DNA from: an uncultured bacterium
Lineage (GTDB): Bacteria > Hinthialibacterota > Hinthialibacteria > Hinthialibacterales > Hinthialibacteraceae
Direction: 5' to 3'
NCBI GenBank assembly: GCA_964556895.1
Contig: CAZKYC010000004.1
Span: forward strand, 11,964-75,963
DNA: 64,000 bases
Shown here: positions 8,981 to 46,276 of the stretch, one piece after another
Position numbering within the stretch: position 1 is the stretch's first letter
Layout of the letters: each line of letters starts with the position of its first letter
Position numbers and translations under genes: made by a program
The notes under the pieces: generated by a model
Databases searched by the model: none
What the model was told of the DNA's origin: nothing
What the model saw: only the letters and a program-made list of their open reading frames with translations

Positions 8981-9035
8981 GGATCCCCCCTGTCCGCTAA
9001 CGCGGACTTCCCCCCTTAAAAAAGGGGGGGCTTTT
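8981..9035. repeat. REP-like GC hairpin element
   Basis: GGATCCCCCCTGTCCGCTAACGCGGACTTCCCCCCTTAAAAAAGGGGGGG. Confidence 0.7.
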
Positions 9036-9142
9036 ATCGCGAGTATCATCCAACCACCCAGAAAATGATTCACACCCATGCCGTACATAACGTGATTCAA
9101 TGAAAAGGGGGCGGGATTTTGTGTCTATGAATCGATCAATAC

Positions 9143-10123
9143 TTATCCGAACTGTTGATAGACCCGCTCGCGCAGCCAGTCTTCTTGGTCGAAGAGTTGG
9201 GTCTGAAGCCCGGCGATTGACTCAAAGCCTTTGGAATCGAGGCTGCGCAGCCAGCGGCTGAGGGCGTATTCGCGCAGGGCGGTCGCGCCTTCCCAGAAGT
9301 TGATGTCTTCGAGGGTCATGCCAAGTTCTTGAACGTAGCGTGCGATGAAATAGTTGGCGAGAGTGCGGTCGTTGATGCGCTGCAGCGACAGCGACGTATA
9401 GGCGGCGTCCCAACGCGGGTCGCCGAAGGCGGCGTGTTCCCAATTGGTGACGCAGCGCACCTGGCCCCGGTTAATCAACAGACAGTCAAGATCGAGGCGG
9501 CCGTGAAGCATCACATAGGTGCAGTCATTGATGTGGGTCATCTGTTTGTGGCATTCGTCAAAACACTTGTTGAGTTTATCGTCGCCGAGCGGTTTGATAC
9601 GCGGTTGAATCTTGTCAAACAGGTCGGTCAGATGGACGGTCGGGATCAACGGATGAGTGGTCGGGGTCTGCAGGTGCATCTGGGCCATCCAGGCTGCCAG
9701 GGTGTCAACCACGTGTTCCTGCATGTGTGACAAACTGTCTTCGCGTTCCCACCAGAAATAGCCGTCGCCTGCGTCCATCAAGATAAAGGGGCGGCCAAAG
9801 GGGCGGCGCGACGGGCTATATGAATAGGGGAACGGCGCCGACAGGCCGCTCTGATAGACATGGCGCATGGCCGAATATTCTTTGGTGATTTTGAGCGGTT
9901 CCGCGCCTTCCCAGAGTGAAAAGAAGCCATATTGTAGCCTCAAGACCAGGTCGGTTTGTGCGTCGTCAGAGACCAGGGTGAAGCTATACTCCAAGTGTGG
10001 GAACACCCGGTGGATGCGCGGCGTCAGGTTTTCAATGCGCAATGAGGAGTCAGTAAACACGCCGCGCGACACGCCAAGCAGCGCGTCTTCTAGCCAGTCA
10101 TACGAGACATGGGTCTGGGTCAT
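9143..10123 (-). CDS. phosphotransferase-family kinase (APH/choline-kinase-like fold)
   Basis: HGRLDLDCLLI catalytic-loop region and NWEHAAFGDP (the D-x-E...GDP motif) are typical of PF01636 phosphotransferases. Substrate unknown. Confidence 0.6.
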   Translation of the reverse strand: MTQTHVSYDWLEDALLGVSRGVFTDSSLRIENLTPRIHRVFPHLEYSFTLVSDDAQTDLVLRLQYGFFSLWEGAEPLKITKEYSAMRHVYQSGLSAPFPYSYSPSRRPFGRPFILMDAGDGYFWWEREDSLSHMQEHVVDTLAAWMAQMHLQTPTTHPLIPTVHLTDLFDKIQPRIKPLGDDKLNKCFDECHKQMTHINDCTYVMLHGRLDLDCLLINRGQVRCVTNWEHAAFGDPRWDAAYTSLSLQRINDRTLANYFIARYVQELGMTLEDINFWEGATALREYALSRWLRSLDSKGFESIAGLQTQLFDQEDWLRERVYQQFG

Positions 10124-11623: not shown

Positions 11624-12571
11624 TTATTCCACCGTTTGGGTTTTTTGCCAATCGACTTGTTGTTTCAACCCCTGATCCAGTGATGTCTTCGGATCATACT
11701 CTAAATACGTTTGCGCTTGTGTGGTGTCAGCGTAGGTATCGCGAACGTCGCCGCGGTTTCTCTCACGGTAGTCGATGTCGGCTTTAACGCCGACGATGGA
11801 TTCAAGTTTTTCAATCACGCCCATCAGTGAGATGCGCGTCCCGCCGCCGAGGTTAAAGACTTTTCCTTCGACAGGCAGTTTTGATGCAGAAATATTAGCG
11901 GTGATGATGTCTTGAACGAACGTAAAGTCGCGGGTTTGCTTGCCGTCGCCTAACACGGTAATGGGTAGGTTATTCAACATCGCTTTGATGAAAATAGTAA
12001 ACGCCATGTCAGGCCGCTGGCGCGGGCCGTACACAGTGAAATAGCGAAGCGACACCACCGGGATGTTGTAATTGTCATGGTACAACATACAAAGTTGTTC
12101 AGCGCTGAGTTTGGTCACGCCGTAAGGCGAATAGGGCCGCGGCAGGGCGGTCTCGCTGGTCGGCAACTGGTCGGTGTTTCCATAGATTGACGATGACGAC
12201 GAATAAACAACCCGAATCGGCTCGCCGGTGGTTCGGACCGACTCTAACAAGCGTTGAGTGGCGAGAACATTGTTTTTGGTGTACTGGTCAAATTGTTGGC
12301 CCCAGCTGCCGCGCACGCCAGGCTGGCCGGCGGTGTGAAACACACAGTCGCATTGCGCCAAAATGGGGACCAAGTTTGTGTGAAGAATGTCGCCTTTGAT
12401 GAAATTAAAGTTGGGATGGTCTTCAATCGTTTCTAGGTTTCGTTTTTTTCGGGCGGGGCTGTAATAATCAGTAAAACAATCCAGCCCAATCACCTCTTCG
12501 CCTTGCTGCAACAACCGCTCGCACAACTGGCTTCCAATAAAACCCGCACAACCTGTTACTAAATACGCCAT
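11624..12571 (-). CDS. NAD-dependent epimerase/dehydratase (extended SDR; UDP-sugar epimerase/decarboxylase family)
   Basis: TGCAGFIGS Rossmann motif, YxxxK region, and about 315 aa length. The exact reaction cannot be assigned. Confidence 0.8.
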   Translation of the reverse strand: MAYLVTGCAGFIGSQLCERLLQQGEEVIGLDCFTDYYSPARKKRNLETIEDHPNFNFIKGDILHTNLVPILAQCDCVFHTAGQPGVRGSWGQQFDQYTKNNVLATQRLLESVRTTGEPIRVVYSSSSSIYGNTDQLPTSETALPRPYSPYGVTKLSAEQLCMLYHDNYNIPVVSLRYFTVYGPRQRPDMAFTIFIKAMLNNLPITVLGDGKQTRDFTFVQDIITANISASKLPVEGKVFNLGGGTRISLMGVIEKLESIVGVKADIDYRERNRGDVRDTYADTTQAQTYLEYDPKTSLDQGLKQQVDWQKTQTVE

Positions 12572-14786: not shown

Positions 14787-15401
14787 TTAAAGAACAAAGT
14801 AATTGTCATGGCCGGGCGCGATGACGTCAGCGACTTTGGCAATCTGGTCGATGGAGTTGCGCGCTGCCGGGCGGTCTTCACAGCCGTCGCCGGGGTCGCG
14901 GTTTTCGAAATGGTCAAAGGTCAAAACCGCGTCACCCGCCACTGCCACCACGCCGTCGCGCGTCTCAAACAGATACGCGCTTGAGCCGTGGGTGTGCCCC
15001 GGCGTAGGCAGCAGCTCAATGCCAGGCAGCGAGTGGTCTTCAAATGGTTCGATTCGATTGGCCAGCAGCGACGCATCGCTAGCAGAGTTTGCGGCGCGAA
15101 TCTCTAAGCGCGGCATCAACCAGGTCGAGTTGGCAAACACTTCGAGTTGGCGGTGATGGGCCGGGTCAAAATGAGTCAACAACACCGCGTCAATCTGATC
15201 GGGCATGAGGCCGCTGCGCCGGTTGAGCAATTCACTTGCGGCTTGCGGCGACTCAAACCCCGGGTCAACCAAGACCACGTTGTCGGCGGTTTCGAGCAAG
15301 GTGATGGTGCACAGCGTCTGACGCCGGGGCGATTCTTCGCCCCAGTATGGGTTGCGGCCCAGCGAGCCGATTTGAATGATGCGCCAATGGGGATTCACCA
15401 T
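14787..15401 (-). CDS. MBL-fold metallo-hydrolase
   Basis: THFDPAHH (a variant of HxHxDH) plus downstream His/Asp ligands. About 204 aa. Confidence 0.65.
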   Translation of the reverse strand: MVNPHWRIIQIGSLGRNPYWGEESPRRQTLCTITLLETADNVVLVDPGFESPQAASELLNRRSGLMPDQIDAVLLTHFDPAHHRQLEVFANSTWLMPRLEIRAANSASDASLLANRIEPFEDHSLPGIELLPTPGHTHGSSAYLFETRDGVVAVAGDAVLTFDHFENRDPGDGCEDRPAARNSIDQIAKVADVIAPGHDNYFVL

Positions 15402-15515
15402 TTTATAGTGATTGCCAAAATTCCATGCAGATTGAGTTTTTCATAATAGTCTCTATCGCTGTCCGCCGCGGCGGATACGGGCGCGCTTACCGAACATGCT
15501 TTTGACAAACGCTCT
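15402..15515 (+). repeat. 113-nt interspersed element, copy A
   Basis: Shares about 85-90% identity with copies at 24182-24292, 27540-27654 and 43868-43980, all in the same orientation. Core motif TCGCTGTCCGCCGCGGCGGATACGGGCGCGCTTACCGxACG...TTTTGACAAACGCTCT. Confidence 0.8.
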
Positions 15516-15653
15516 TGATAGTGTACCCGTATTTTTAGGGGGAAAAATCGACGTGAAACCATAAACCTTACGGTCGTGAACATACCCGCTTTCTTGTCTA
15601 CTATATATCTGTGATATAACGAGTTAGATTATAATATGTTTGTATTGTGATTA

Positions 15654-24181: not shown

Positions 24182-24292
24182 CTATAGTGGTTGCTAGAAT
24201 TATGTGCGGATTGAGTTTACGTAACTGTATCTATCGCTGTTCGCCGCGGCGGATTCGGGCGTGCTTTACGCACATTTTTTGACAAACGCTCT
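24182..24292 (+). repeat. 113-nt interspersed element, copy B
   Basis: See copy A. Overlaps the stop codon of the convergent aminotransferase gene. Confidence 0.8.
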
Positions 24293-25316
24293 ATCCGGAT
24301 TTTAATGCCTCAATCACCTTTTGGTTCTCTTGTTTCGTCCCGACGCCGATGCGAAGGGCGATCTGTTCACCGCCGACGTTTTTCGTTTGGTTTGAAACAT
24401 AGATGCCCGCTTGTTTCAATCTTTGCGAAGGGTCATTCTCTGGCGGCCACAGCGAAAGAACAAAATTTGCGTACGATACCGGCGCTTCGGCGCCCAGCAG
24501 TCTCAACTGGTCCGCCAGCCATTTTCGTTGTTCGACCAGGGTGACCACCCGCCGTTTCATTTCATCGGCTTCGTCCAGCGCCGCGACGGCCGCCGCTTGG
24601 GCAATGGCGTTTACCGGAAAGGTCAACGCCGCGTTGGCCATTCGTTCGATCAGCGCTTCACCGGCGACTGCATACCCAACGCGCAGCCCCGCCAGAGAAA
24701 AACTCTTCGACAGGCTGCGAAAGATAATCAGGTCGTCGCGCTCATGAATGAGAGGGGCCAGGGTCTTTTCGCTAAATTCAAAATAACACTCGTCAATCAC
24801 TTTGACGCCGGTCAGGCGGTCTAGGATGGATACTAACTGCATGCGCGAGGTGAGTGTACCGGTGGGGTTGTTGGGGTTGGCGATGAAAGTTAAGGCTGAT
24901 TCGCTGGTGATAGACTGCGCGTCCGGTAAATTGAAATCTGGTGTTCGTTCCAGCCGGTCAACCGCGCGGTTATGCCGTTGGGCGGCGAAGCGATAGACAA
25001 AAAAACTCGGCTCAAAGGTCGCGACGGAATCGCCTTCATCGGTTAGCGCAACCACGGCGAGGTCGATCAATTCATCCGAGCCGTTGCCCACGATGATGTT
25101 CTCCGGATTCACATTGGCGCCCACATAGAGCGCCAATTTTTCGCGGAGCGCAAAACAATTTGTGTCTGGATAGCGGTTACAATATAGTGCGGCGTCAGCG
25201 ATGGCGCATTGCACATGCTCTGACGGTGGATACGGGTTCTCGCCCAGGTGTGAATAGACAGCGTTTGGCTCTCGCCAAAACGTGGGGATATCAATTCGCG
25301 GCGGCATGGTTGGCAT
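24291..25316 (-). CDS. hisC: histidinol-phosphate aminotransferase family (class II PLP aminotransferase)
   Basis: SLSKSFSLAGLRVGY (PLP-lysine region) and an NPxNPTG-like motif. 341 aa. Could alternatively be a CobD-type decarboxylase. Confidence 0.55.
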   Translation of the reverse strand: MPTMPPRIDIPTFWREPNAVYSHLGENPYPPSEHVQCAIADAALYCNRYPDTNCFALREKLALYVGANVNPENIIVGNGSDELIDLAVVALTDEGDSVATFEPSFFVYRFAAQRHNRAVDRLERTPDFNLPDAQSITSESALTFIANPNNPTGTLTSRMQLVSILDRLTGVKVIDECYFEFSEKTLAPLIHERDDLIIFRSLSKSFSLAGLRVGYAVAGEALIERMANAALTFPVNAIAQAAAVAALDEADEMKRRVVTLVEQRKWLADQLRLLGAEAPVSYANFVLSLWPPENDPSQRLKQAGIYVSNQTKNVGGEQIALRIGVGTKQENQKVIEALKSG

Positions 25317-25610
25317 GATGAGGGCCTCGTTCGGTAAAATGACATGTGCATCGTAATCCCGTCAGGTCGAAAAGGAAGAAGCCATGCCCGTTAATCGCAG
25401 CGTCGCGGTGTGGCATCTGTATTCGTATGTCAACATCGAGCGGGGGCGCGAAAACTAGAAACCATACACGAAATATTGTAGCACACTGGCGCGGGTTCAT
25501 CTCTGTGAGCGCCTGTGCATAAGAGCCTGATAGCCCGCACTGAAGTGAAGAGAGATGTACACGCGCCAGATTTATCTAAGGGGTTGTGATCGACATATCG
25601 TTAAACGCAC

Positions 25611-27392: not shown

Positions 27393-27457
27393 AGTGTATT
27401 CGTTTAAATTATCTAATTGTTCTATGCTGATATCTGCAATCTTATCTTAAGCCTAGA

Positions 27458-27506
27458 TACCTCCTGTCCGCCTGCGGCGGCCTTCCCCGCTTGAAAAGGG
27501 GGGCGC
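27458..27506. repeat. REP-like GC hairpin element
   Basis: CTCCTGTCCGCCTGCGGCGGCCTTCCCCGCTTGAAAAGGGGGGCG. Confidence 0.7.
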
Positions 27507-27539: not shown

Positions 27540-27654
27540 TATTATAGTGGTTGCCAGAATGATGTTCGGATTGAGCTTACATACCTGTATCTTTCGCTGT
27601 CCGCCTGCGGCGGATAGGGGCGCGCTTACTGCACGCAATTTTGTCAAACGCCCT
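27540..27654 (+). repeat. 113-nt interspersed element, copy C
   Basis: See copy A. Located in a divergent intergenic region 35 nt after a REP-like element. Confidence 0.8.
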
Positions 27655-27756
27655 AGACGTCTCAATTAACGGTTCATCTCACGAAATAGTATCCTAAAAC
27701 TACGCCCTTTGTCGATTTGTTGGTATCATTATTCAATACCGTTGGGACAGAGATCA

Positions 27757-30150: not shown

Positions 30151-30180
30151 CTGATCCCCCCTGTCCGCCAGCGGCGGCCC
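30151..30180. repeat. REP-like element, partial (first hairpin only)
   Basis: CTGATCCCCCCTGTCCGCCAGCGGCGGCCC. Lacks the C6-TTAATAA-G6 second hairpin. Confidence 0.5.
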
Positions 30181-33196: not shown

Positions 33197-34816
33197 ATGA
33201 AAATACAGACCAGCGACTTTCTCATCATTGGCTCCGGCGTCGCCGGGTTACACACCACCCTCAACGCCGCCCAATCGGGCAGCGTCAACCTGGTCACCAA
33301 AAAAGACGATTTTGAATCGAACACCAACTACGCCCAGGGCGGCATCGCCTCAGTACTCGACCGCCATGACTCGTTTGACTCGCATGTACGCGACACCCTC
33401 GAAGCGGGCGCGGGCCTGTGCCGCCGCGACGCGGTCGAACTTATCGTCGAGCACGGGCCTGAAGCGATCCAATCGCTGATCGATATCGGGGTCGAGTTTA
33501 CCCGCCGCCGCGACGGCGAACTCGAACTAGGGCGCGAAGGCGGCCATTCGTACCGGCGCATCGTCCACGCCAAAGACCTGACCGGGCGCGAAGTCGAACG
33601 CGCCCTGTTGAAAAAGGTGCGCAGCCTCGACAACGTCACAATCTTTCAGTATTACTTCGCTGTTGATTTGATCGTCGACGATGCCGGCCGTTGTTGGGGC
33701 GCCTGGGTGTGGGATGAAAAGAGCGAAGAGGCCATCGCCTTTCTGGCGAGCGTCACGCTGATGTGTTCGGGCGGCTGCGGCCTGGTCTACCAACACAGCA
33801 CCAACCCGTCAATCGCCACCGGCGACGGCGTCGCCATGGGGTTTCGCGCCGGCGCGCCCATCGCCAATATGGAGTTCATTCAGTTTCACCCAACGGCGTT
33901 TTATCGCCCGGACGCCAATGACGCCCCGTTTTTAATTTCTGAAGCGGTGCGCGGCGAAGGGGCCATACTTCGCAAGCGCGACGGCGAAGCCTTCATGGAG
34001 CGCTACCACCCGCTCAAAGACCTGGCGCCCCGCGACATCGTCGCCCGGGCCATCGACGCCGAAACCAAACAAAGCGGCGACCCCTATTGTTATCTCGACG
34101 TTAGCCACATTGAGTTTGATTTCTTTCAATCGCGTTTTCCCAACATCACCGCCTATTGCGAGTCAAACGGCGTCAAGCTGCCGTTTGACTCGATCCCGGT
34201 GGTCCCGGCGGCCCATTATATGTGCGGCGGGGTGTTGTCTGACCTCAACGGCGCTACCAACATCACAGGGTTTTTCGTGATTGGCGAAGCCGCCTGTACG
34301 GGCGTTCACGGCGCCAACCGTCTGGCCAGCAACTCGATCTTAGAAGCGCTGATCTTCAGCCGCCGCGCGCTGGAAGTGATTACAGAACAATCACTCTTAC
34401 AACCGCCGCCCGACGCCTTGGGCCTCGATTGGAACAAACCCAAGCCGACCGAGCGCATCGAAAGCATACAGTTCGTCAATTGCCGCCAGACGCTCAGCAA
34501 ATTGATGTGGGATTACGTCGGAATTGTTCGCTCAGACGAGCGGCTTCACCTCGCCCACAAACGCATCAAAGTGTTAAAAGAAGAAATTGATGGATACTAC
34601 GAGTCGGGCTACATCAACCGCCAGGTGTTAGAATTGCGCAATCTGGTTCAAACCGCTGACTTGATCATTCATTGCGCCTGGCAGCGTAAAGAAAGCCGCG
34701 GCTTACACTACAACCTCGACTATCCACAAATTCTCGCCGACCCGTTCGATTCGGTCATTACCCGCAACGAATACGGCCGCCCTCACATCGAAAGCCGCCC
34801 GGTTGCGTCTATTTAA
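33197..34816 (+). CDS. nadB: L-aspartate oxidase
   Basis: N-terminal FAD motif IIGSGVAG, AQGGIA, and fumarate-reductase-family conservation. 539 aa. Confidence 0.9.
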   Translation: MKIQTSDFLIIGSGVAGLHTTLNAAQSGSVNLVTKKDDFESNTNYAQGGIASVLDRHDSFDSHVRDTLEAGAGLCRRDAVELIVEHGPEAIQSLIDIGVEFTRRRDGELELGREGGHSYRRIVHAKDLTGREVERALLKKVRSLDNVTIFQYYFAVDLIVDDAGRCWGAWVWDEKSEEAIAFLASVTLMCSGGCGLVYQHSTNPSIATGDGVAMGFRAGAPIANMEFIQFHPTAFYRPDANDAPFLISEAVRGEGAILRKRDGEAFMERYHPLKDLAPRDIVARAIDAETKQSGDPYCYLDVSHIEFDFFQSRFPNITAYCESNGVKLPFDSIPVVPAAHYMCGGVLSDLNGATNITGFFVIGEAACTGVHGANRLASNSILEALIFSRRALEVITEQSLLQPPPDALGLDWNKPKPTERIESIQFVNCRQTLSKLMWDYVGIVRSDERLHLAHKRIKVLKEEIDGYYESGYINRQVLELRNLVQTADLIIHCAWQRKESRGLHYNLDYPQILADPFDSVITRNEYGRPHIESRPVASI

Positions 34817-34868
34817 CAGCCATCTCGAATGAATGAGTACGAATTAGGATCCAGACTTATCAATAAAT

Positions 34869-34985
34869 GAGGCTCATCCGGGATTTGGATACGTTCTCTC
34901 AAATTGAATTAAAAGTTCCCGACACGATCTCAAGGATGATTTTTTTATGGTTGTATTTGGCATGGGTACAACTCTGCTCGCTTCA
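34869..34985 (+). repeat. 120-bp direct repeat, left copy flanking bioA
   Basis: GGCTCATCCGGGATTTGGATACGTTCTCTCAAATTGAATTAAAAGTTCC...GGCATGGGTACAACTCTGCTCGCTTC. About 93% identical to 36634-36752. Confidence 0.8.
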
Positions 34986-35146
34986 GTGCGGCTCCGCCTT
35001 TTTGCACAGGCGCTCACAGAGTTGCACCCATGCCTGAGTTGGATTGTCTATTATTGATAGGACGAATATCGTTTTTTGCCCCAATCCCAGGTCATCCAGC
35101 AAGGGAAGTACTCAAATATCGGAAGAACCATAAATGACAACTCTTT

Positions 35147-36547
35147 TTAGGCCTGGGCGCCAGATTCTGCCAGCGTTTTGCCATCCAAGACCTCAGCCAT
35201 CGACTCTTCGAGCGCGTCGAACAAGAAATCAATTTCTTCGGGGGTGGTGATGAGCGGCGGAATTACCACCAGCGTATTGCCCAACGGCCGCAGCCACACC
35301 CCGCGGGTTCGCATGGCGAAGCACACCTTCGCGCCCATCTTCTGTTCGATGGGATAGGCGCGTTTCTGCGAGCGGCTTTCGGCGATGTCGATGCCCGCGA
35401 TTAACCCGATGGCGTGAATATCAGCGACGTGGTCGCTTGAGTCATACAATTGGTCAAGGCGAGTTTGCATGCGCTCGACGGCGGGCCGCATGGCGTTGAG
35501 CGAGTTGTCTTTGTCAAACAGGTCTAAACTGGCCAGCGCCGCCGCGCAGCCCATCTGGTTGCCAGTGTATGAATGGCCATGGAAGAAGGTTTTAAACTCG
35601 CCATAGTCTCCGAGAAACGATTGATAGATCGCGTCGGTCGCCAACGTCGCCGCTAGAGGCAGGTAGCCGCCGGTGATGCCCTTCGCCAGGCACAACAAGT
35701 CGGGTGTGACGCCTTCTTGTTGGCAGCCAAACAGGGCCCCGGTGCGGCCAAAGCCGACAAACACCTCGTCGCAGATTAAGAGAATATTGTATTGGCCGCA
35801 GAGTTGGCGCAGCCCCTTCAAGAAGCCAGGCGCCTGGGTTCGCAGGCCCGAGGCGCCCTGAACAATCGGCTCGATGATTACCGCCGCGCATTTCGTCGCG
35901 TGCTCTTTAAGCACAGCCTCGCAGGCGTCCAGCGCCTGTTGACTGACGGCCTCTGGGCCTTCTGGGTTGGCGTATTTTGAATAGACCGGATACGGCGCGC
36001 GATAGGTTTTGAAGAGCAACGGCCCAAAAACGCTGTGAAACAGGTCAATGCCGCCCACGCTGACGCTGCCGATGGTGTCGCCGTGGTAGGCGCCTTCAAA
36101 GGTGATAAACGAACAGCGGTTGAGGTCAGGATTCTCTTTTTGCCGCCATGATTGAAACGCCATTTTGAGGGCGACTTCAACCGAGGTCGAGCCGTTATCT
36201 GAATAAAACACTTTTGACAGTCCATCCGGCGCGGCCTCAACCAGGCGTTTCGCCAATTCAATTGCGGGCGCGTTAGACGGTCCCAATAGCGTTGAGTGGG
36301 CGATGCGTTGCGCCTGGTCATGCATCGCTTGGTTCATCTCTGGCCGGGCGTGGCCGTGAAGGTTCACCCACAGCGATGAATTGCCGTCGAAGTATTTGTT
36401 TCCCTCAGCGTCATAGAGATACACTCCCTCGCCGCGCTCGACGATGAGCGGCGGTTCGTTGGCGTAGTCTTGCATCTGAGTGAACGGGTGCCAGAGATAT
36501 TGCTTGTCCCAGTCGGCGAGAATAGATGGTTTGATTGGTTTGGTCAT
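35147..36547 (-). CDS. bioA: adenosylmethionine-8-amino-7-oxononanoate aminotransferase
   Basis: Class-III aminotransferase with BioA-specific N-terminus (WHPFTQM) and a PLP-lysine region. Confidence 0.9.
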   Translation of the reverse strand: MTKPIKPSILADWDKQYLWHPFTQMQDYANEPPLIVERGEGVYLYDAEGNKYFDGNSSLWVNLHGHARPEMNQAMHDQAQRIAHSTLLGPSNAPAIELAKRLVEAAPDGLSKVFYSDNGSTSVEVALKMAFQSWRQKENPDLNRCSFITFEGAYHGDTIGSVSVGGIDLFHSVFGPLLFKTYRAPYPVYSKYANPEGPEAVSQQALDACEAVLKEHATKCAAVIIEPIVQGASGLRTQAPGFLKGLRQLCGQYNILLICDEVFVGFGRTGALFGCQQEGVTPDLLCLAKGITGGYLPLAATLATDAIYQSFLGDYGEFKTFFHGHSYTGNQMGCAAALASLDLFDKDNSLNAMRPAVERMQTRLDQLYDSSDHVADIHAIGLIAGIDIAESRSQKRAYPIEQKMGAKVCFAMRTRGVWLRPLGNTLVVIPPLITTPEEIDFLFDALEESMAEVLDGKTLAESGAQA

Positions 36548-36633
36548 GGTTTGATTTTGATTGTTTTATATTAACGATGTAGGGGCGCAGCGCGCTGCAC
36601 CCCGAATGAACAAGAACCCATCTCAAAAATACT

Positions 36634-36752
36634 GGCTCATCCCGGATTTGGATTCGTTCTCTCAAATTGAATTAAAATTTCCTGACACGATCTCAAGGAT
36701 GATTTTTTTATCGTTGTATGTGGCATGGGTATAACTCTGCTCGCTTCGCAGC
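36634..36752 (+). repeat. 120-bp direct repeat, right copy flanking bioA
   Basis: See 34869-34985. Runs directly into the tandem array. Confidence 0.8.
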
Positions 36753-37201
36753 CGCTCACTATTCCCCAGCAATTGCTGCGAAATCGGCAGCCCTTGTGAA
36801 ATATCTTGATCCCCCCTGTCCGCCGATGGCGGCCTTCCCCCCTTAATAAGGGGGGTGTCTAGCCCCTGTTTATTTTTGAGACGGCTTCTAACTTGCTTAT
36901 TCTCACTCGTTTCGCAGCCGCTCACTATTCCCCAGCAATTGCTGCGAAATCGGCAGCCCTTGTGAAATATCTTGATCCCCCCTGTCCGCCGATGGCGGCC
37001 TTCCCCCCTTAATAAGGGGGGTGTCTAGCCCCTGTTTATTTTTGAGACGGCTTCTAACTTGCTTATTCTCACTCGTTTCGCAGCCGCTCACTATTCCCCA
37101 GCAATTGCTGCGAAATCGGCAGCCCTTGTGAAATATCTTGATCCCCCCTGTCCGCCGATGGCGGCCTTCCCCCCTTAATAAGGGGGGTGTCTAGCCCCTG
37201 T

Positions 37202-37204
<3 letters not shown>
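36736..37204. repeat. tandem direct repeat, 166-bp unit x 2.8
   Basis: Unit ...CGCAGCCGCTCACTATTCCCCAGCAATTGCTGCGAAATCGGCAGCCCTTGTGAAATATCTTGATCCCCCCTGTCCGCCGATGGCGGCCTTCCCCCCTTAATAAGGGGGGTGTCTAGCCCCTGTTTATTTTTGAGACGGCTTCTAACTTGCTTATTCTCACT. Copies are essentially identical. Each contains one REP-like hairpin. The last copy is truncated exactly at the bioD stop codon. Confidence 0.85.
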
Positions 37205-37969
<765 letters not shown>

Positions 37970-37989
37970 TTATATAGTAAACGAGAGTA

Positions 37990-39198
37990 TTACGCGGCCA
38001 ATGGAGCAGGCAACGCAACACCCATCACCCCAGACAAGACGACCAATAAAATCGCCACAACGGCTGCGACGATCATACTGTCTTTGATGGTCTTGCCTTC
38101 GCCGCTCGAAATCGAGCCCATCCAGGCCGGGACGAAGATCGCGCCCAAGAGGCCGATGGCGAAGATAATGCTGAAGCCTGTGCCTGCCATTTCACCCGGC
38201 ACGCGAGCAAACATCAGTCCGGCGATTGTCGGGAAGATTGGCGCGAACAATAAGCCAAGCAGGATGACGCAAATTGTCGCTGCGCCTTTGCTGTTGATGC
38301 CCTTCATCGCGAACAAAACGACTGCGGAAACAGCCGCAAGCACCAGAATAAACCAAGGGCCGTTTGCGCCTGAAAGAACAATCATTTGGCCCACCACCAA
38401 CGCTGTAAAGAGCCGGCCAGCCATGATCGCGACTGAGAAGAATGACAGGTTTGTATTGGCTTGCGTGTCAGTTGCGCCCACGCTGGTCATATAGGTGGTG
38501 ATCCACCCCGCCATCGACACTTCAAGCGCAATGTAGAACATGAGACCCAACGCACAAAGAATAATCGTTGGGTCGGTGATCAAACCACTCGCCGCGGATG
38601 CGCTGAAGTTTCCGCCTGATTCGGGAAAGGTTGCCATGAAAGCAATCACTAAAGGAACCACAAGCAACAGGCCTAAAATCGTCAAAGACCCGCCGAATGA
38701 CATGCGTTTAAACAGAAAAGCAGAGAGCATCGGCGTAACAAATGCGCCCACGCCAAAGAACACGTTGCCCAAGTTGCCAGACTGGCCTGGGTCAGGAAAA
38801 ACAATGGCCGGGTTGCCAAGAAGGACGTTGCCCGCCGTGTTCATAAACATACTACCGACGCCCAAGAACAAGCAGGCGACGACTGCGATGGCATAGGTTT
38901 TCGCCTGGCCCATAAAGAGCATCGATGCAATGCCCGCAGCGAAACCAATAATGGCGCAGGTTTGATAACCAAAGTTATCGGTGACAATTCCCGCGACTAA
39001 GACAAACACTAAATTGCTGAAGTTGTAGACAGAAAACAATTTGCCCATTTGGGCGTCGTTGATGCCTAGGGTTTCTGTCAGTTTTAATTTAATGCTTCCC
39101 AATAAAAACATGGTAAGCCCGAGGCCAAATACGCTGGTTACGGCCACGATATTCGCAAACATCATGTTTTGATCTTCCATTTGCGCAGTTCCTCCCAA
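37990..39198 (-). CDS. MFS transporter
   Basis: Twelve hydrophobic helices. GIVTDNFG (motif-A-like) between TM2 and TM3. Confidence 0.6.
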   Translation of the reverse strand: MGGTAQMEDQNMMFANIVAVTSVFGLGLTMFLLGSIKLKLTETLGINDAQMGKLFSVYNFSNLVFVLVAGIVTDNFGYQTCAIIGFAAGIASMLFMGQAKTYAIAVVACLFLGVGSMFMNTAGNVLLGNPAIVFPDPGQSGNLGNVFFGVGAFVTPMLSAFLFKRMSFGGSLTILGLLLVVPLVIAFMATFPESGGNFSASAASGLITDPTIILCALGLMFYIALEVSMAGWITTYMTSVGATDTQANTNLSFFSVAIMAGRLFTALVVGQMIVLSGANGPWFILVLAAVSAVVLFAMKGINSKGAATICVILLGLLFAPIFPTIAGLMFARVPGEMAGTGFSIIFAIGLLGAIFVPAWMGSISSGEGKTIKDSMIVAAVVAILLVVLSGVMGVALPAPLAA

Positions 39199-39534
39199 GC
39201 CAAGATATGCTTGCTGGTTACACAGCAGGCGAGGCGATTATTACATACCCCAAGTTGAGTATCAACGGGCGGAGACCGAAACCGCCCTACATTTTTGTAG
39301 GGCGCGTGCGACGCGATTGCCTATCCCCAAAATTGGCAAATGCATAGAAACACGGTGGTGAATGATTCTCTTGGGTATTTGTCCGTTGTACTTCGATGAG
39401 TTTTTAATTAGTCGTGATCCCTCACAAAATCTAAACCAAGCCCTAAGCATCTTCTAATAACGGTTTAATTCGCTTCCAACATTGAGATGGATACTGGTAA
39501 CAGCAACATCTAACCAAAATTTGGAGGCAGTAGT

Positions 39535-41460
39535 ATGCAACGTATTTTCATCTTAATGATGGCCATCATGTGTCTGGCCGCCGGCGGCTGGGCAGCAACC
39601 AACAATTCTGGCAACCCCCCGACGTTTCTTCATTTAGACATCTGCACCAACGGTCTCGGCGACAACACCAGCGGCGTTGCCTTCCCTCGAATGGAAGCGG
39701 GCGTATTTGACGTTGGCGTCGACCTCGACGCTGACGGAACCATCGATCGTTGGTTGTCAGAAGAAAAGACCGAGTTTTTGGGCCGCGACAACCAAGACAA
39801 CATCAGCATCGACGGCTGGCGCCGGTTTTATATTCGGCTTGACGCCGACGCGGGCAAGATGGCGAAAATTCGCATCGTCGACCTTAGCGACGCGTTTTAC
39901 ATCGCGGTCAACGCCATCCGCCTGAACTACGCTGATGGGACCGTCGTCGCCAATGAAGTGCCCAATGGGTTCTTCGAAGACGAAGCTCCGTTGAACGGCT
40001 GGACGGTCTTAGAAGGCTCAGTCACCGACCCCGCCGCGCTCATCATCAATGACGAAAACGGCCAATACAACATGTACAGCACCAAGTTTTTCTCGTCGCG
40101 CACAGACGTCTTGAGCGCCGACAACTCAGAAACCGTCGTGATCGAATCAGACGCCTTTGAACTCAAAGCCCCCACCAGTTTTGTCTATGGCATGGTCTCG
40201 GGCGGCGGCTCTGAACTGTTCAACGTTCCCGAAGCGGGCTTGTCAGACAACGCCAGCGGCGTATTTCTCGACATCGAACCGCTCAACGGCGAATATGACG
40301 AAGGCCGCGACGTTCCTCTCACCGGCTTCTACGGCGGCAAGATCGACAACGTGCGCAACCAGATGCACCCCGTCTTTCTCAACACCTCCGGCCAAGAAGG
40401 CAAGCAATGCCAGATCGTCGCGATTGATAACTCAGAGTTTTATCACATCGGTCTCGATAGTTTTCGCATGAACTGGGACCTCGACATCATCCGCAACGGC
40501 GGGTTTGACGAAGGCGTACCGACTCCTGAAGAAGACCCCGACGCAGTCGAATGGTTTTCTGAACAAGTCATCGAACACACCCTTCACCCCAGCGGCGGCA
40601 TCCCCGGCTGGTCCGTCGAAAGCGACGCGGGCGACCCGGTTTATTACTTTGACGACGCCAGCCACGGCAGCCAGTTTTCAGGCCGAACCTTCATCGGCAC
40701 GGCTGGCAGCACCGAAGGCCGCTTCTTCACAGGAATGAAAGTGGTTTCCGACCCGTTCGCCATCACCGCCTTGCCTGACCCGGCCAACAGCATCTTCTTA
40801 CAGTTCGCGTCCGCCCAAGGCTCCGCCCGCGAGCGCTACACCGACGACGGCGGTTCAAAAGAATACGGCACCGTCGAACTTCACGTCGACGTCAACGGCA
40901 ACGGCAACTTTGACGACGCCGAAGACGCCAACTATCGTCAAATCCATCAGGGCATGGGCCAGAACTTCAACACCAGCAATATGGACTTATGGTCATACCC
41001 CGAATATCGCTTCTACATCAAGCCCGAACACTACGGCATGCCCGCCCGCATCTTTGTCGAAGACACCATGGGCCCCAGCCGCGGCAGCTATGGCTGGATG
41101 TGCGTCGACGACTTCTTTATCTGGAACGGCAGTGAAGCGGTCTTGCCTTTCCCCAACTCAGACTTTGAATTGGGCAGCATGGAAAACTGGAACGAAGAAA
41201 CCAACATCAACGGCGGCGAGCTCGACTCATGGTTGTCAGGCTCTGGCGAACTGTGGATTGACGGCTTGATCTGCCGCGATAGCAGCTGCCAGGCGGGCCA
41301 CTACGCCATGAACAACCGCCACGGTATGGCCGACGGCAACTTCGCGGCTGACTCAGCCCCCAACGAATACGCCAACGGCGACGCTGGCACAGGCACGCTG
41401 ATCTCAACCACCTTTGACTTGCCGACATTGACCACCGTTGACGAATGGAGCCTGTTCTAA
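39535..41460 (+). CDS. secreted protein with three CBM4/9-like (galactose-binding-like) modules
   Basis: Signal peptide. Three modules each begin with an NG(G)F(E/D)xxxxxxW pattern (EVPNGFFEDEAPLNGW, IIRNGGFDEGVP, FPNSDFELGSMENW) as in CBM_4_9 beta-sandwiches. Confidence 0.4.
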   Translation: MQRIFILMMAIMCLAAGGWAATNNSGNPPTFLHLDICTNGLGDNTSGVAFPRMEAGVFDVGVDLDADGTIDRWLSEEKTEFLGRDNQDNISIDGWRRFYIRLDADAGKMAKIRIVDLSDAFYIAVNAIRLNYADGTVVANEVPNGFFEDEAPLNGWTVLEGSVTDPAALIINDENGQYNMYSTKFFSSRTDVLSADNSETVVIESDAFELKAPTSFVYGMVSGGGSELFNVPEAGLSDNASGVFLDIEPLNGEYDEGRDVPLTGFYGGKIDNVRNQMHPVFLNTSGQEGKQCQIVAIDNSEFYHIGLDSFRMNWDLDIIRNGGFDEGVPTPEEDPDAVEWFSEQVIEHTLHPSGGIPGWSVESDAGDPVYYFDDASHGSQFSGRTFIGTAGSTEGRFFTGMKVVSDPFAITALPDPANSIFLQFASAQGSARERYTDDGGSKEYGTVELHVDVNGNGNFDDAEDANYRQIHQGMGQNFNTSNMDLWSYPEYRFYIKPEHYGMPARIFVEDTMGPSRGSYGWMCVDDFFIWNGSEAVLPFPNSDFELGSMENWNEETNINGGELDSWLSGSGELWIDGLICRDSSCQAGHYAMNNRHGMADGNFAADSAPNEYANGDAGTGTLISTTFDLPTLTTVDEWSLF

Positions 41461-43850: not shown

Positions 43851-43867
43851 GCGCCCCGCCAGTCGCT

Positions 43868-43980
43868 TATATAATGGTTGCCAGAATTATGTGGGGATTG
43901 AGCTTAGGTAACTGTATCTTTCGCTGTCCGCCGCGGCGGATACGGGCGCGCTTACCGCACGCAATTTTGTCAAACGCTCT
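43868..43980 (+). repeat. 113-nt interspersed element, copy D
   Basis: See copy A. Followed at 44017-44040 by a CCTCCCCCAACTTGGGGGAGG hairpin just after the PmoA-family gene stop. Confidence 0.8.
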
Positions 43981-44054
43981 AAACCTATTGATGCACTCAG
44001 CCTTTCAGACAACCCCCACCCAGCCTCCCCCAACTTGGGGGAGGGGTAGGTTGT

Positions 44055-46148: not shown

Positions 46149-46276
46149 GGTTTCTCCCCTTTAATGGACGACGTCTGATTTATTTAAGGGGGAGGGCGAA
46201 CCTCCCGGTGAGCCGCATACAATGAACATGTTTCTAAACAAATCGGCTCGTCAGGAGACTCGCCCTCCCCCAATCA

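Follow-up and report, generated by a model that had tools for sequence, protein, structure and literature searches.

The window (the entire 64-kb stretch of DNA that was analysed) carries the biotin genes bioD and bioA on its minus strand, with an MFS transporter gene upstream of bioD (Table 1). Both biotin genes scored above the cut-offs of curated models, and the first-pass annotation was right to place between them a tandem array of about 2.8 near-identical 166-bp units. Tandem Repeats Finder returned this array as a single tract (36740-37205) with a period of 166, 2.8 copies, 99% matches, no indels and a score of 925, every other tandem array in the window scoring 79 or less. The copies differ at one position only (36744, C vs T), and copy-to-copy identity stops at 37205, one base beyond the bioD stop codon. 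Because the units follow one another directly, without spacers, and are the same over their whole length, the array is not a CRISPR. We consider the unit to be non-coding, since its length leaves a remainder on division by three (166 mod 3 = 1) and the ORFs that cross the array are all short and shift frame between units. Rfam searches yielded no family at E <= 1 for positions 34000-40000 or for two contigs from relatives (L002 and L005), and nothing at the gathering score for the whole window.

Table 1. Genes, repeats and predicted signals in and around the bioD-bioA spacer (positions are those of the window)
Feature	Coordinates	Strand	Remarks
bioA (adenosylmethionine-8-amino-7-oxononanoate transaminase, 466 aa)	35147-36547	minus	TIGR00508, 530 bits (cut-off 405)
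bioD (dethiobiotin synthase, 239 aa)	37202-37921	minus	TIGR00347, 157 bits (cut-off 83)
MFS transporter gene	37990-39198		upstream of bioD
166-bp tandem array	36740-36905, 36906-37071, 37072-37205		third copy 134 nt; repeat finding and self-BLAST, 99-100% identity
Private unit interior, ~60 nt	36749-36807, again at +166 and +332		no homolog found
Double-hairpin (DH) module, 48 nt, GATCCCCCCTGTCCGCCGATGGCGGCCTTCCCCCCTTAATAAGGGGGG	36808-36855, 36974-37021, 37140-37187	+
S module, 36 nt, TTATTTTTGAGACGGCTTCTAACTTGCTTATTCTCA	36870-36905, 37036-37071	+	absent from the incomplete third copy
Inverted, diverged S-like segment	36604-36632	-	17/19 complementary; DNA search with 2 mismatches; directly left of the half MITE
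Half MITE of family H (copy B), 5' half	36634-36748	+	fused to the array at CTCGYTTC
Complete MITE of family H (copy A), 259 bp	34871-35129	+	ends 17 nt from the bioA stop
GTAG-tagged palindrome GTAGGGGCGCAGCGCGCTGCACCCC (canonical REP type)	36578-36603	+	~30 nt before the bioA start codon; occurs once in the window
Promoter-like TTGAGA-16-TATTCT	36876-36903, 37042-37069	+	consensus scan
Terminator-like GGGGGTGTCTAGCCCCT followed by a T-run	36851-36877, 37017-37043, 37183-37209	+	consensus scan

Read on the plus strand (copy 36906-37071), the unit consists of five parts: the opening segment CTCGTTTCG, a private interior of about 60 nt, a double-hairpin (DH) module, a short linker (TGTCTAGCCCCTGT) and the S module, to which the linker joins DH. 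The private interior holds a 12-nt perfect palindrome, CAGCAATTGCTG (36767-36778), and a 9-bp stem, TTTCGCAGC/GCTGCGAAA. The unit interior had no match in the JGI metagenomes and no homolog among the 51 loci that were fetched. The GTDB representative genomes (596 Gb) yielded a single match, in a Christensenella MAG (L001), which was judged to be due to chance, as it spans 23 nt and its flanks are unrelated. The palindrome CAGCAATTGCTG was also considered as a bio operator and rejected, since in the window it is confined to the array and lies near no promoter region.

Each unit contains the hairpin CCCCCCTTAATAAGGGGGG, which has 10 matches in the window where chance would give 0.01. This hairpin is a portion of the longer DH module, with the layout GATCCCCCC-TG-(stem-loop)-TT-CCCCCC-TTAATAA-GGGGGG, which is found at other sites too. 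Outside the array, DH occurs at three intergenic sites of the window (8982-9030, 27453-27503 and a half copy near 30152) and at six sites in the contigs of relatives, including L002 (1778, 4482 and 8671), L005 (6913-6952) and L011 (3041). The first stem varies in sequence between copies and covaries, such that its pairing is kept; the C6/G6 hairpin is conserved. The dispersed copies face both ways relative to the neighbouring genes; the three copies in the array have one orientation and are spaced 166 bp apart. Small dispersed repeats are abundant in the intergenic DNA of the window in general. DH is a short, G+C-rich, imperfect palindrome that is extragenic and dispersed over the 64-kb window and the contigs of relatives, and in these respects it corresponds to a REP element. 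REP palindromes bear a conserved GTAG (or CGTC) tetranucleotide at one end (PMC3733652), and no GTAG or CTAC tag was found on DH, which starts with GATCCCCCC and ends with GGGGGG. The description of the unit as carrying one REP-like hairpin therefore stands as far as dispersal, extragenic location and palindromic nature are concerned, but the element is a double hairpin, it lacks the tag and it is uniformly oriented in the array.

The homopolymer blocks of DH are C6, C6 and G6, the first two being parted by about 20 nt that form a hairpin of their own. Intrastrand triplex motifs, defined by three consecutive homopurine/homopyrimidine blocks of 6-15 nt with loops of 1-6 nt, have been tied to genomic instability (PMC4666352). 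We rejected DH as a motif of this type (BoxC/TM; ITxF), because its loop of about 20 nt falls outside the 1-6-nt range. By analogy, the triplex-like C6/C6/G6 layout might nevertheless have driven the duplication, a suggestion that we regard as speculative.

The array directly abuts one half of a MITE, and the surrounding DNA is a patchwork of mobile-element fragments that the first-pass annotation had overlooked. The family to which this MITE belongs, here called H, was traced through a shared motif, GGCATGGGTAYAACTCTGCTCGCTTC, in the contig of a relative, at a second site in the window and in one metagenome scan. The scan gave 46 matches, about 33 of which came from sample Ga0222672 (containing a Candidatus Hinthialibacter antarcticus population), and this sample holds at least 33 copies of the family. 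H is an element of about 260 bp with terminal inverted repeats of about 25 bp (GGTTCWTCCGGTATTTGGATAC and GTACTCACTTACCGGATGAACC at the two ends) that begin with GGTTCTTCCGG. It is flanked by AT-rich, 8-bp target-site duplications, which were identical at all eight positions in six elements, including copy A (ATAAATGA at 34863-34870 and 35130-35137), and at seven of eight in three more. With its small size, lack of coding capacity, terminal inverted repeats, target-site duplications and many copies, H is, on its sequence features, a bona fide MITE, and it constitutes a previously undescribed family in Hinthialibacterota. An ISL3-like enzyme may be its mobiliser, a guess from the features of ISL3 elements (ends starting with GG and 8-bp duplications); for the hairpins, the candidate would be a Y1/RAYT enzyme. 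Copy B, the half element next to the array, is 94% identical to positions 34871-34984 of copy A and comprises the part between the 5' terminal inverted repeat and the 5' arm of the central hairpin, both included; its 3' partner repeat was not detected.

The centre of H is an 84-nt hairpin, which also occurs on its own. Its 18-bp outer stem covaries, with compensatory changes at eight pairs and 92% of the cells paired, and none of 500 shuffles reached the covariation score. The hairpin family displays strand-specific G-U pairing, a pattern that suggests transcription of the plus orientation. A conserved GGCATGGGTACAAC motif was evaluated as a sigma-54 or sigma-70 promoter and discarded, given that the spacings do not fit and that the motif is an arm of the covarying stem. 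A covariance model of the hairpin (R1), run with the filters off, found copies A (86 bits) and C in the window and no hairpin in or beside the array, and the unit was therefore rejected as a diverged H hairpin.

Sequence matches indicate that the S module also occurs outside the array. Many H MITEs contain its reverse complement as an internal module, and S-like copies lie 25-60 nt downstream of H MITE hairpins in L002 (12444-12464) and L048 (~1183-1210). The 166-bp unit itself is not a MITE: terminal inverted repeats and a target-site duplication are lacking, and no full-length copy was found outside the array.

At its other end, the array reaches bioD, and it had been proposed that the truncated last copy supplies the stop codon of this gene. 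The last copy does overlap the TAA (tta on the plus strand, 37202-37204), but the stop has not been moved: BioD and its 69%-identical homolog P0003 both have 239 aa and share the position of their C-terminus, and the tail of BioD starts past the final conserved Trp, which is also the case in all homologs. Shortening or lengthening of BioD by the array is ruled out by this agreement in C-terminal length. The sequence shared at the end of bioD comprises ATAA only, after which the unit follows. As the stop is not displaced, ATAA is better read as junction microhomology, and this comparison of homologs argues that the stop codon was not newly supplied by the repeat in any functional sense.

The closest BioD homolog besides the source record (73% identity) is from Candidatus Hinthialibacter antarcticus, phylum Candidatus Hinthialibacterota, a taxon described from Ace Lake MAGs (PMC9324843). 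In this relative (L002), the gene order is MFS-bioD-bioA, and the bioD-bioA spacer of 183 bp contains a different palindrome, made of two BoxC-like motifs in inverted orientation. In L005, a relative with 69% identity, a TPR gene rather than bioA follows MFS-bioD, and a DH copy is located about 190 nt past the bioD stop, in the same orientation as in the array. The view that bioD and bioA are normally contiguous therefore holds loosely for the former, where bioA comes after the 183-bp spacer, but not for the latter. The comparison of relatives for presence of the array, as had been proposed, showed that the array is absent at bioD in both. It is not conserved, since the L002 spacer is only 183 bp long and has a different element, although members of the group commonly carry some hairpin element past bioD. 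Tandem arrangements occur elsewhere in these genomes: L030 has two H copies in tandem (period 224, 95% identity), and L002 has two tandem copies of these elements at 12080-12460. Local duplication of such modules is therefore a habit of these genomes.

We believe, with a probability of roughly two in three, that the array arose when a 166-bp non-coding mosaic was recently amplified in tandem at this site, that it was later trimmed at microhomologies, and that it has no dedicated function. The amplified segment is a composite of about 60 private nucleotides, the lineage-wide REP-like DH module and the 36-nt S module that is tied elsewhere to the H MITE. The ancestral order on the plus strand would have been an H MITE, then S, then a 134-nt segment including DH (hereafter V) and finally the bioD stop. 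S plus V (166 bp) would then have undergone two duplications, through slippage in replication or unequal recombination. A later deletion between CTCGCTTC, at the end of the 5' arm of the MITE hairpin, and CTCGTTTC, at the start of V, would have taken away the 3' half of the MITE together with the leftmost S, leaving the array against a half MITE and with 2.8 rather than 3.0 copies because this S was lost. Homology to the MITE extends to 36747 and the periodicity of the array starts at 36740, giving an 8-nt overlap, CTCGYTTC, in which the C at 36744, the sole base that differs among the copies, agrees with the MITE consensus, which is what one expects of a junction at a microhomology. The order of these steps, the way in which the duplication came about and any influence on expression are inferred, and so is the deletion, a second event that the 2.8-copy state requires and that was not observed. 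The proposed history leaves the inverted S-like segment beside the half MITE unexplained. The array is young rather than maintained, because its units are 100% identical, and the recent expansion or ongoing slippage that had been deduced from this identity is plausible.

The position of the array in the biotin operon raises the question of its consequences for the mRNA. Bio-sense (minus-strand) RNA of one unit has a predicted folding energy of -60.3 kcal/mol (z = -3.7), with none of 200 shuffles folding as well, and that of the whole 676-nt spacer is -243 kcal/mol (z = -4.4); the plus-strand unit is unremarkable (z = -1.5). In terms of predicted folding, these values agree with the earlier suggestion that strong hairpins would lie inside any bioD-bioA transcript. 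Such strongly negative z-scores could hint at selection, although G+C-rich palindromic repeats reach them without any function. A consensus scan found no terminator-like site on the minus strand, so read-through from bioD to bioA is possible. A read-through transcript would carry three blocks of very stable hairpins as a passive consequence of the amplification, the first predicted structure beginning 3-14 nt past the bioD stop.

Of comparable arrays, the most thoroughly studied is REP325 of Escherichia coli, located between yjdM and yjdN and built of six tandem units with two hairpins each (twelve in all). It makes the upstream mRNA more stable and dampens transcription of the downstream gene to some degree, an attenuation that depends in part on Rho (bioRxiv 10.64898/2026.03.23.713779). 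By analogy with the E. coli REP arrays, the hairpin blocks would shield the bioD mRNA from 3' decay and partly attenuate bioA, and a REP325-like effect of this kind is likely here as a passive consequence, neither demonstrated nor selected. Alternatively, selection might have made the array a cis-regulatory device of the bio mRNA, and its copy number would then tune the BioD:BioA ratio. Such a device would act in the manner of REP325, stabilising the bioD message and partly terminating or attenuating transcription into bioA, and it might possibly also stall terminating ribosomes, as the first structure lies less than 15 nt past the stop codon. This would fit with the stronger folding of the minus-strand RNA relative to shuffles and to the plus strand, with the DH copy similarly oriented downstream of bioD in L005, with the strong palindromic element after bioD in all three relatives and with the precedent of REP325. 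However, the array and the unit interior are conserved in no relative, DH faces both ways relative to neighbouring genes, and the identity of the units speaks for an event in the very recent past and against a maintained architecture. We therefore regard a selected device as unlikely; any such effect is in addition compatible with amplification of the mosaic, of which it could be a by-product.

It is also conceivable that the array is partly or wholly an artefact of assembly, with a true copy number of one or some other value and arbitrary looping by the assembler. The array was seen in a single metagenome-assembled contig of 95,166 bp, such that the figure of 2.8 copies, and indeed any number above two, is provisional, and look-ups of the exact BioD and BioA sequences and of the identical BioD record P0001 found no second, independent assembly of the locus. 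Perfect units of 166 bp exceed common k-mer sizes and are close to short-read length, and short reads alone cannot fix their copy number; the locus is likely to be misassembled by short-read assemblers. However, at least two copies are real, because the S-to-V junction must occur in the reads for the assembler to build a loop. Furthermore, a period of 166 fits no usual k-mer or overlap artefact length, and tandem arrangements of the same elements are present at related loci in other assemblies. An artefact accounting for the array is, for these reasons, quite unlikely.

It is highly improbable that each unit is a plus-strand small RNA gene, antisense to the bio transcript, with TTGAGA-16-TATTCT driving an RNA of about 135 nt that ends in GGGGGTGTCTAGCCCCT and the T-run, and with the first copy driven from the half MITE: the promoter-like and terminator-like matches keep the same register across all units, the -35 of a unit overlaps the T-run of the one before it, and the half MITE, from a family with strand-specific G-U pairing in its hairpin, is directed into the array, but the matches number only 3 promoter-like sites vs 1.4 +/- 1.2 and 3 terminator-like sites vs 1.5 +/- 1.3 in shuffles (within range in both cases, repeats not being independent instances), TTGAGA is part of S, which elsewhere occurs in both orientations without a following -10, the plus-strand fold is unremarkable, the unit interior has no homolog in relatives and no Rfam match, and the T-run of the third copy is degraded. 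Tandem small RNA genes form arrays such as those of NsiR1 in Nostoc and LhrC in Listeria, and their periodicity, their overlap of a T-run with the next -35 and the presence of a promoter-like and a terminator-like element per unit on one strand resemble what is seen here, but the array described here differs in its lack of conservation and in having motif matches at chance level.

Among known repeat systems, the array resembles bacterial intergenic minisatellites or VNTRs, such as the mycobacterial MIRU-VNTRs, which presumably arise and vary by slippage or unequal recombination. It shares with them the head-to-tail arrangement, the constant period, the high identity and the location of a non-coding unit between the genes of an operon. 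The defining property of a VNTR is copy-number polymorphism. The array differs in that its unit is a mosaic of other dispersed repeats and not a member of a dispersed VNTR family. It also resembles the BIME-2/REP arrays of E. coli, including REP325, as a tandem, hairpin-bearing, non-coding unit between co-oriented genes (PMC2817692, PMC3333891), with a hairpin module that is dispersed in extragenic DNA and with upstream stabilisation and partial attenuation likely in both. However, BIMEs are made of successive REPs in alternating orientation with short conserved linkers (PMC2817692), their unit of about 80-100 bp having two alternating REPs and the GTAG/CTAC tag, whereas the unit described here is 166 bp long, with one double hairpin in a single orientation, no GTAG tag, about 60 private nucleotides and a MITE-associated module. 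As for MITE derivatives of the Correia/NEMIS and ERIC type (PMC3184786), the likeness lies in the fact that the array abuts a true MITE family and shares a module with it, and in the tandem or truncated MITE pairs of the related contigs L030 and L002. We conclude that this is a minisatellite or BIME-like array, a product of ordinary genome instability and not a new system.

A copy-number 'dial' in the biotin operon, built from the mobile hairpin modules of the lineage, or a set of unit-wise antisense RNAs, is decidedly improbable. If it were true, expansion and contraction in steps of 166 bp would tune BioD:BioA, either by stabilising and attenuating the mRNA or by way of plus-strand antisense RNAs from each unit, and the C6/C6/G6 double hairpin would be a local instability hotspot behind the expansions. 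The array itself matters little, being one more tandem amplification in repeat-rich intergenic DNA. It nonetheless provides a clean case of REP-like hairpins and MITE fragments that recombine to form mosaic arrays within an operon, and it comes from a phylum without cultured members. The H MITE is a better subject for follow-up than the array, because its 84-nt hairpin covaries, is strand-specific and also stands alone.

The dispersed repeat H, whose truncated 5' half adjoins the 166-bp tandem array in the bioD-bioA spacer, is a MITE family not recognised before. Its elements are about 260 bp long, with terminal inverted repeats of ~25 bp beginning GGTTCTTCCGG and AT-rich target-site duplications of 8 bp; in terminal repeats and duplication length H presumably resembles the ISL3-family insertion sequences. 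A single JGI metagenome, which includes Ca. Hinthialibacter antarcticus, holds at least 33 copies.

The 84-nt central hairpin of H is also present as solitary copies that lack the arms of the MITE. Covariation is seen in the outer stem of the hairpin, with compensatory changes at 8 pairs (0/500 shuffles), and one strand is favoured, as seen from G-U pairs and from model scores of 86–90 versus 25–41 bits. The loop is near-invariant, which was in part imposed by the search pattern used, and comparison of the hairpin with Rfam yielded no match. This hairpin could be a structured RNA or, alternatively, a hairpin module at the DNA level that the MITE carries. In the relatives, H and its hairpin were also found in tandem or near-tandem at further sites, as was a direct repeat flanking the module described next (see table).

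DH, the 48-nt double hairpin found once per array unit, is likewise dispersed. Its first stem covaries across genomes: the window has GTCCGCC/GGCGGAC, the Ca. H. antarcticus contig L002 has GGCGC/GCGCC, and L005, a relative, has GGCGTC/GACGCC. The C6-TTAAnAA-G6 hairpin of DH is conserved. In L002, DH sits within a longer common element of ~100 nt. A further dispersed intergenic family, X, consists of copies of ~115 bp with 77–90% identity and contains a hairpin (CTGTCCGCC-GCGGCGGA) whose stem core is identical to that of the first DH hairpin in the array.

Coordinates of repeats, palindromes and ORFs in the window and related contigs (L006–L050, Ga0222672 contigs)
Feature	Location	Strand
H MITE, complete	window 34871-35129	
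H MITE, 5' half	window 36634-36748	
H MITE	L002 ~9000-9260, 12080-12460; L006-L050	
Two H MITEs, period 224, 3' end missing from first	L030 402-820	
Two H hairpin units, spacing about 200 bp	L002 12080-12460	
84-nt H hairpin	window 34957-35036	+
84-nt H hairpin	window 25486-25569	-
84-nt H hairpin, weak candidate	window 46187-46272	-
84-nt H hairpin	L009, L014, L023, L025, L040, L043, L046, L048	
46-nt direct repeat, 161 bp apart, DH between copies	L002 8579-8624, 8740-8785	
DH	window 8982-9030, 27453-27503, 30152-30175	
DH	L002 1778-1818, 4482-4523, 8671-8713	
DH	L005 6913-6952	
DH	L011 3041-3084	
X	window 15401-15518, 24183-24293, 27542-27658, 43867-43984	
Inverted motif pair, bioD-bioA spacer	L002 6790-6880	
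GTAG/CTAC palindrome, bioA	window 36578-36603	
CTAC...GTAG palindrome, MFS	window ~39285-39310	
641-aa ORF, divergent from MFS-bioD	window 39535-41460	+
641-aa gene	L005 2479-4404	

The 641-aa ORF beside the MFS transporter gene and bioD had no match in Pfam or NCBIfam. L005 has a gene of 641 aa at the corresponding position, with no Pfam hit on record.

The bioD-bioA spacer of Ca. H. antarcticus contains an inverted motif pair of the CCCTCTCCC / GGGAGAGGG / GGGTGAGGG type, which we take to resemble the BoxC or triplex motifs of E. coli; Rfam searches of this spacer returned only sub-threshold microRNA models, judged to be spurious. In the window, a canonical GTAG/CTAC-tagged palindrome of the REP type (GTAGGGGCGCAGCGCGCTGCACCCC) precedes the start of bioA by about 30 nt, and a second REP-type palindrome, with a CTAC...GTAG pair, is found in the upstream region of the MFS gene. 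These GTAG/CTAC palindromes suggest that the genome may have a RAYT-type system.
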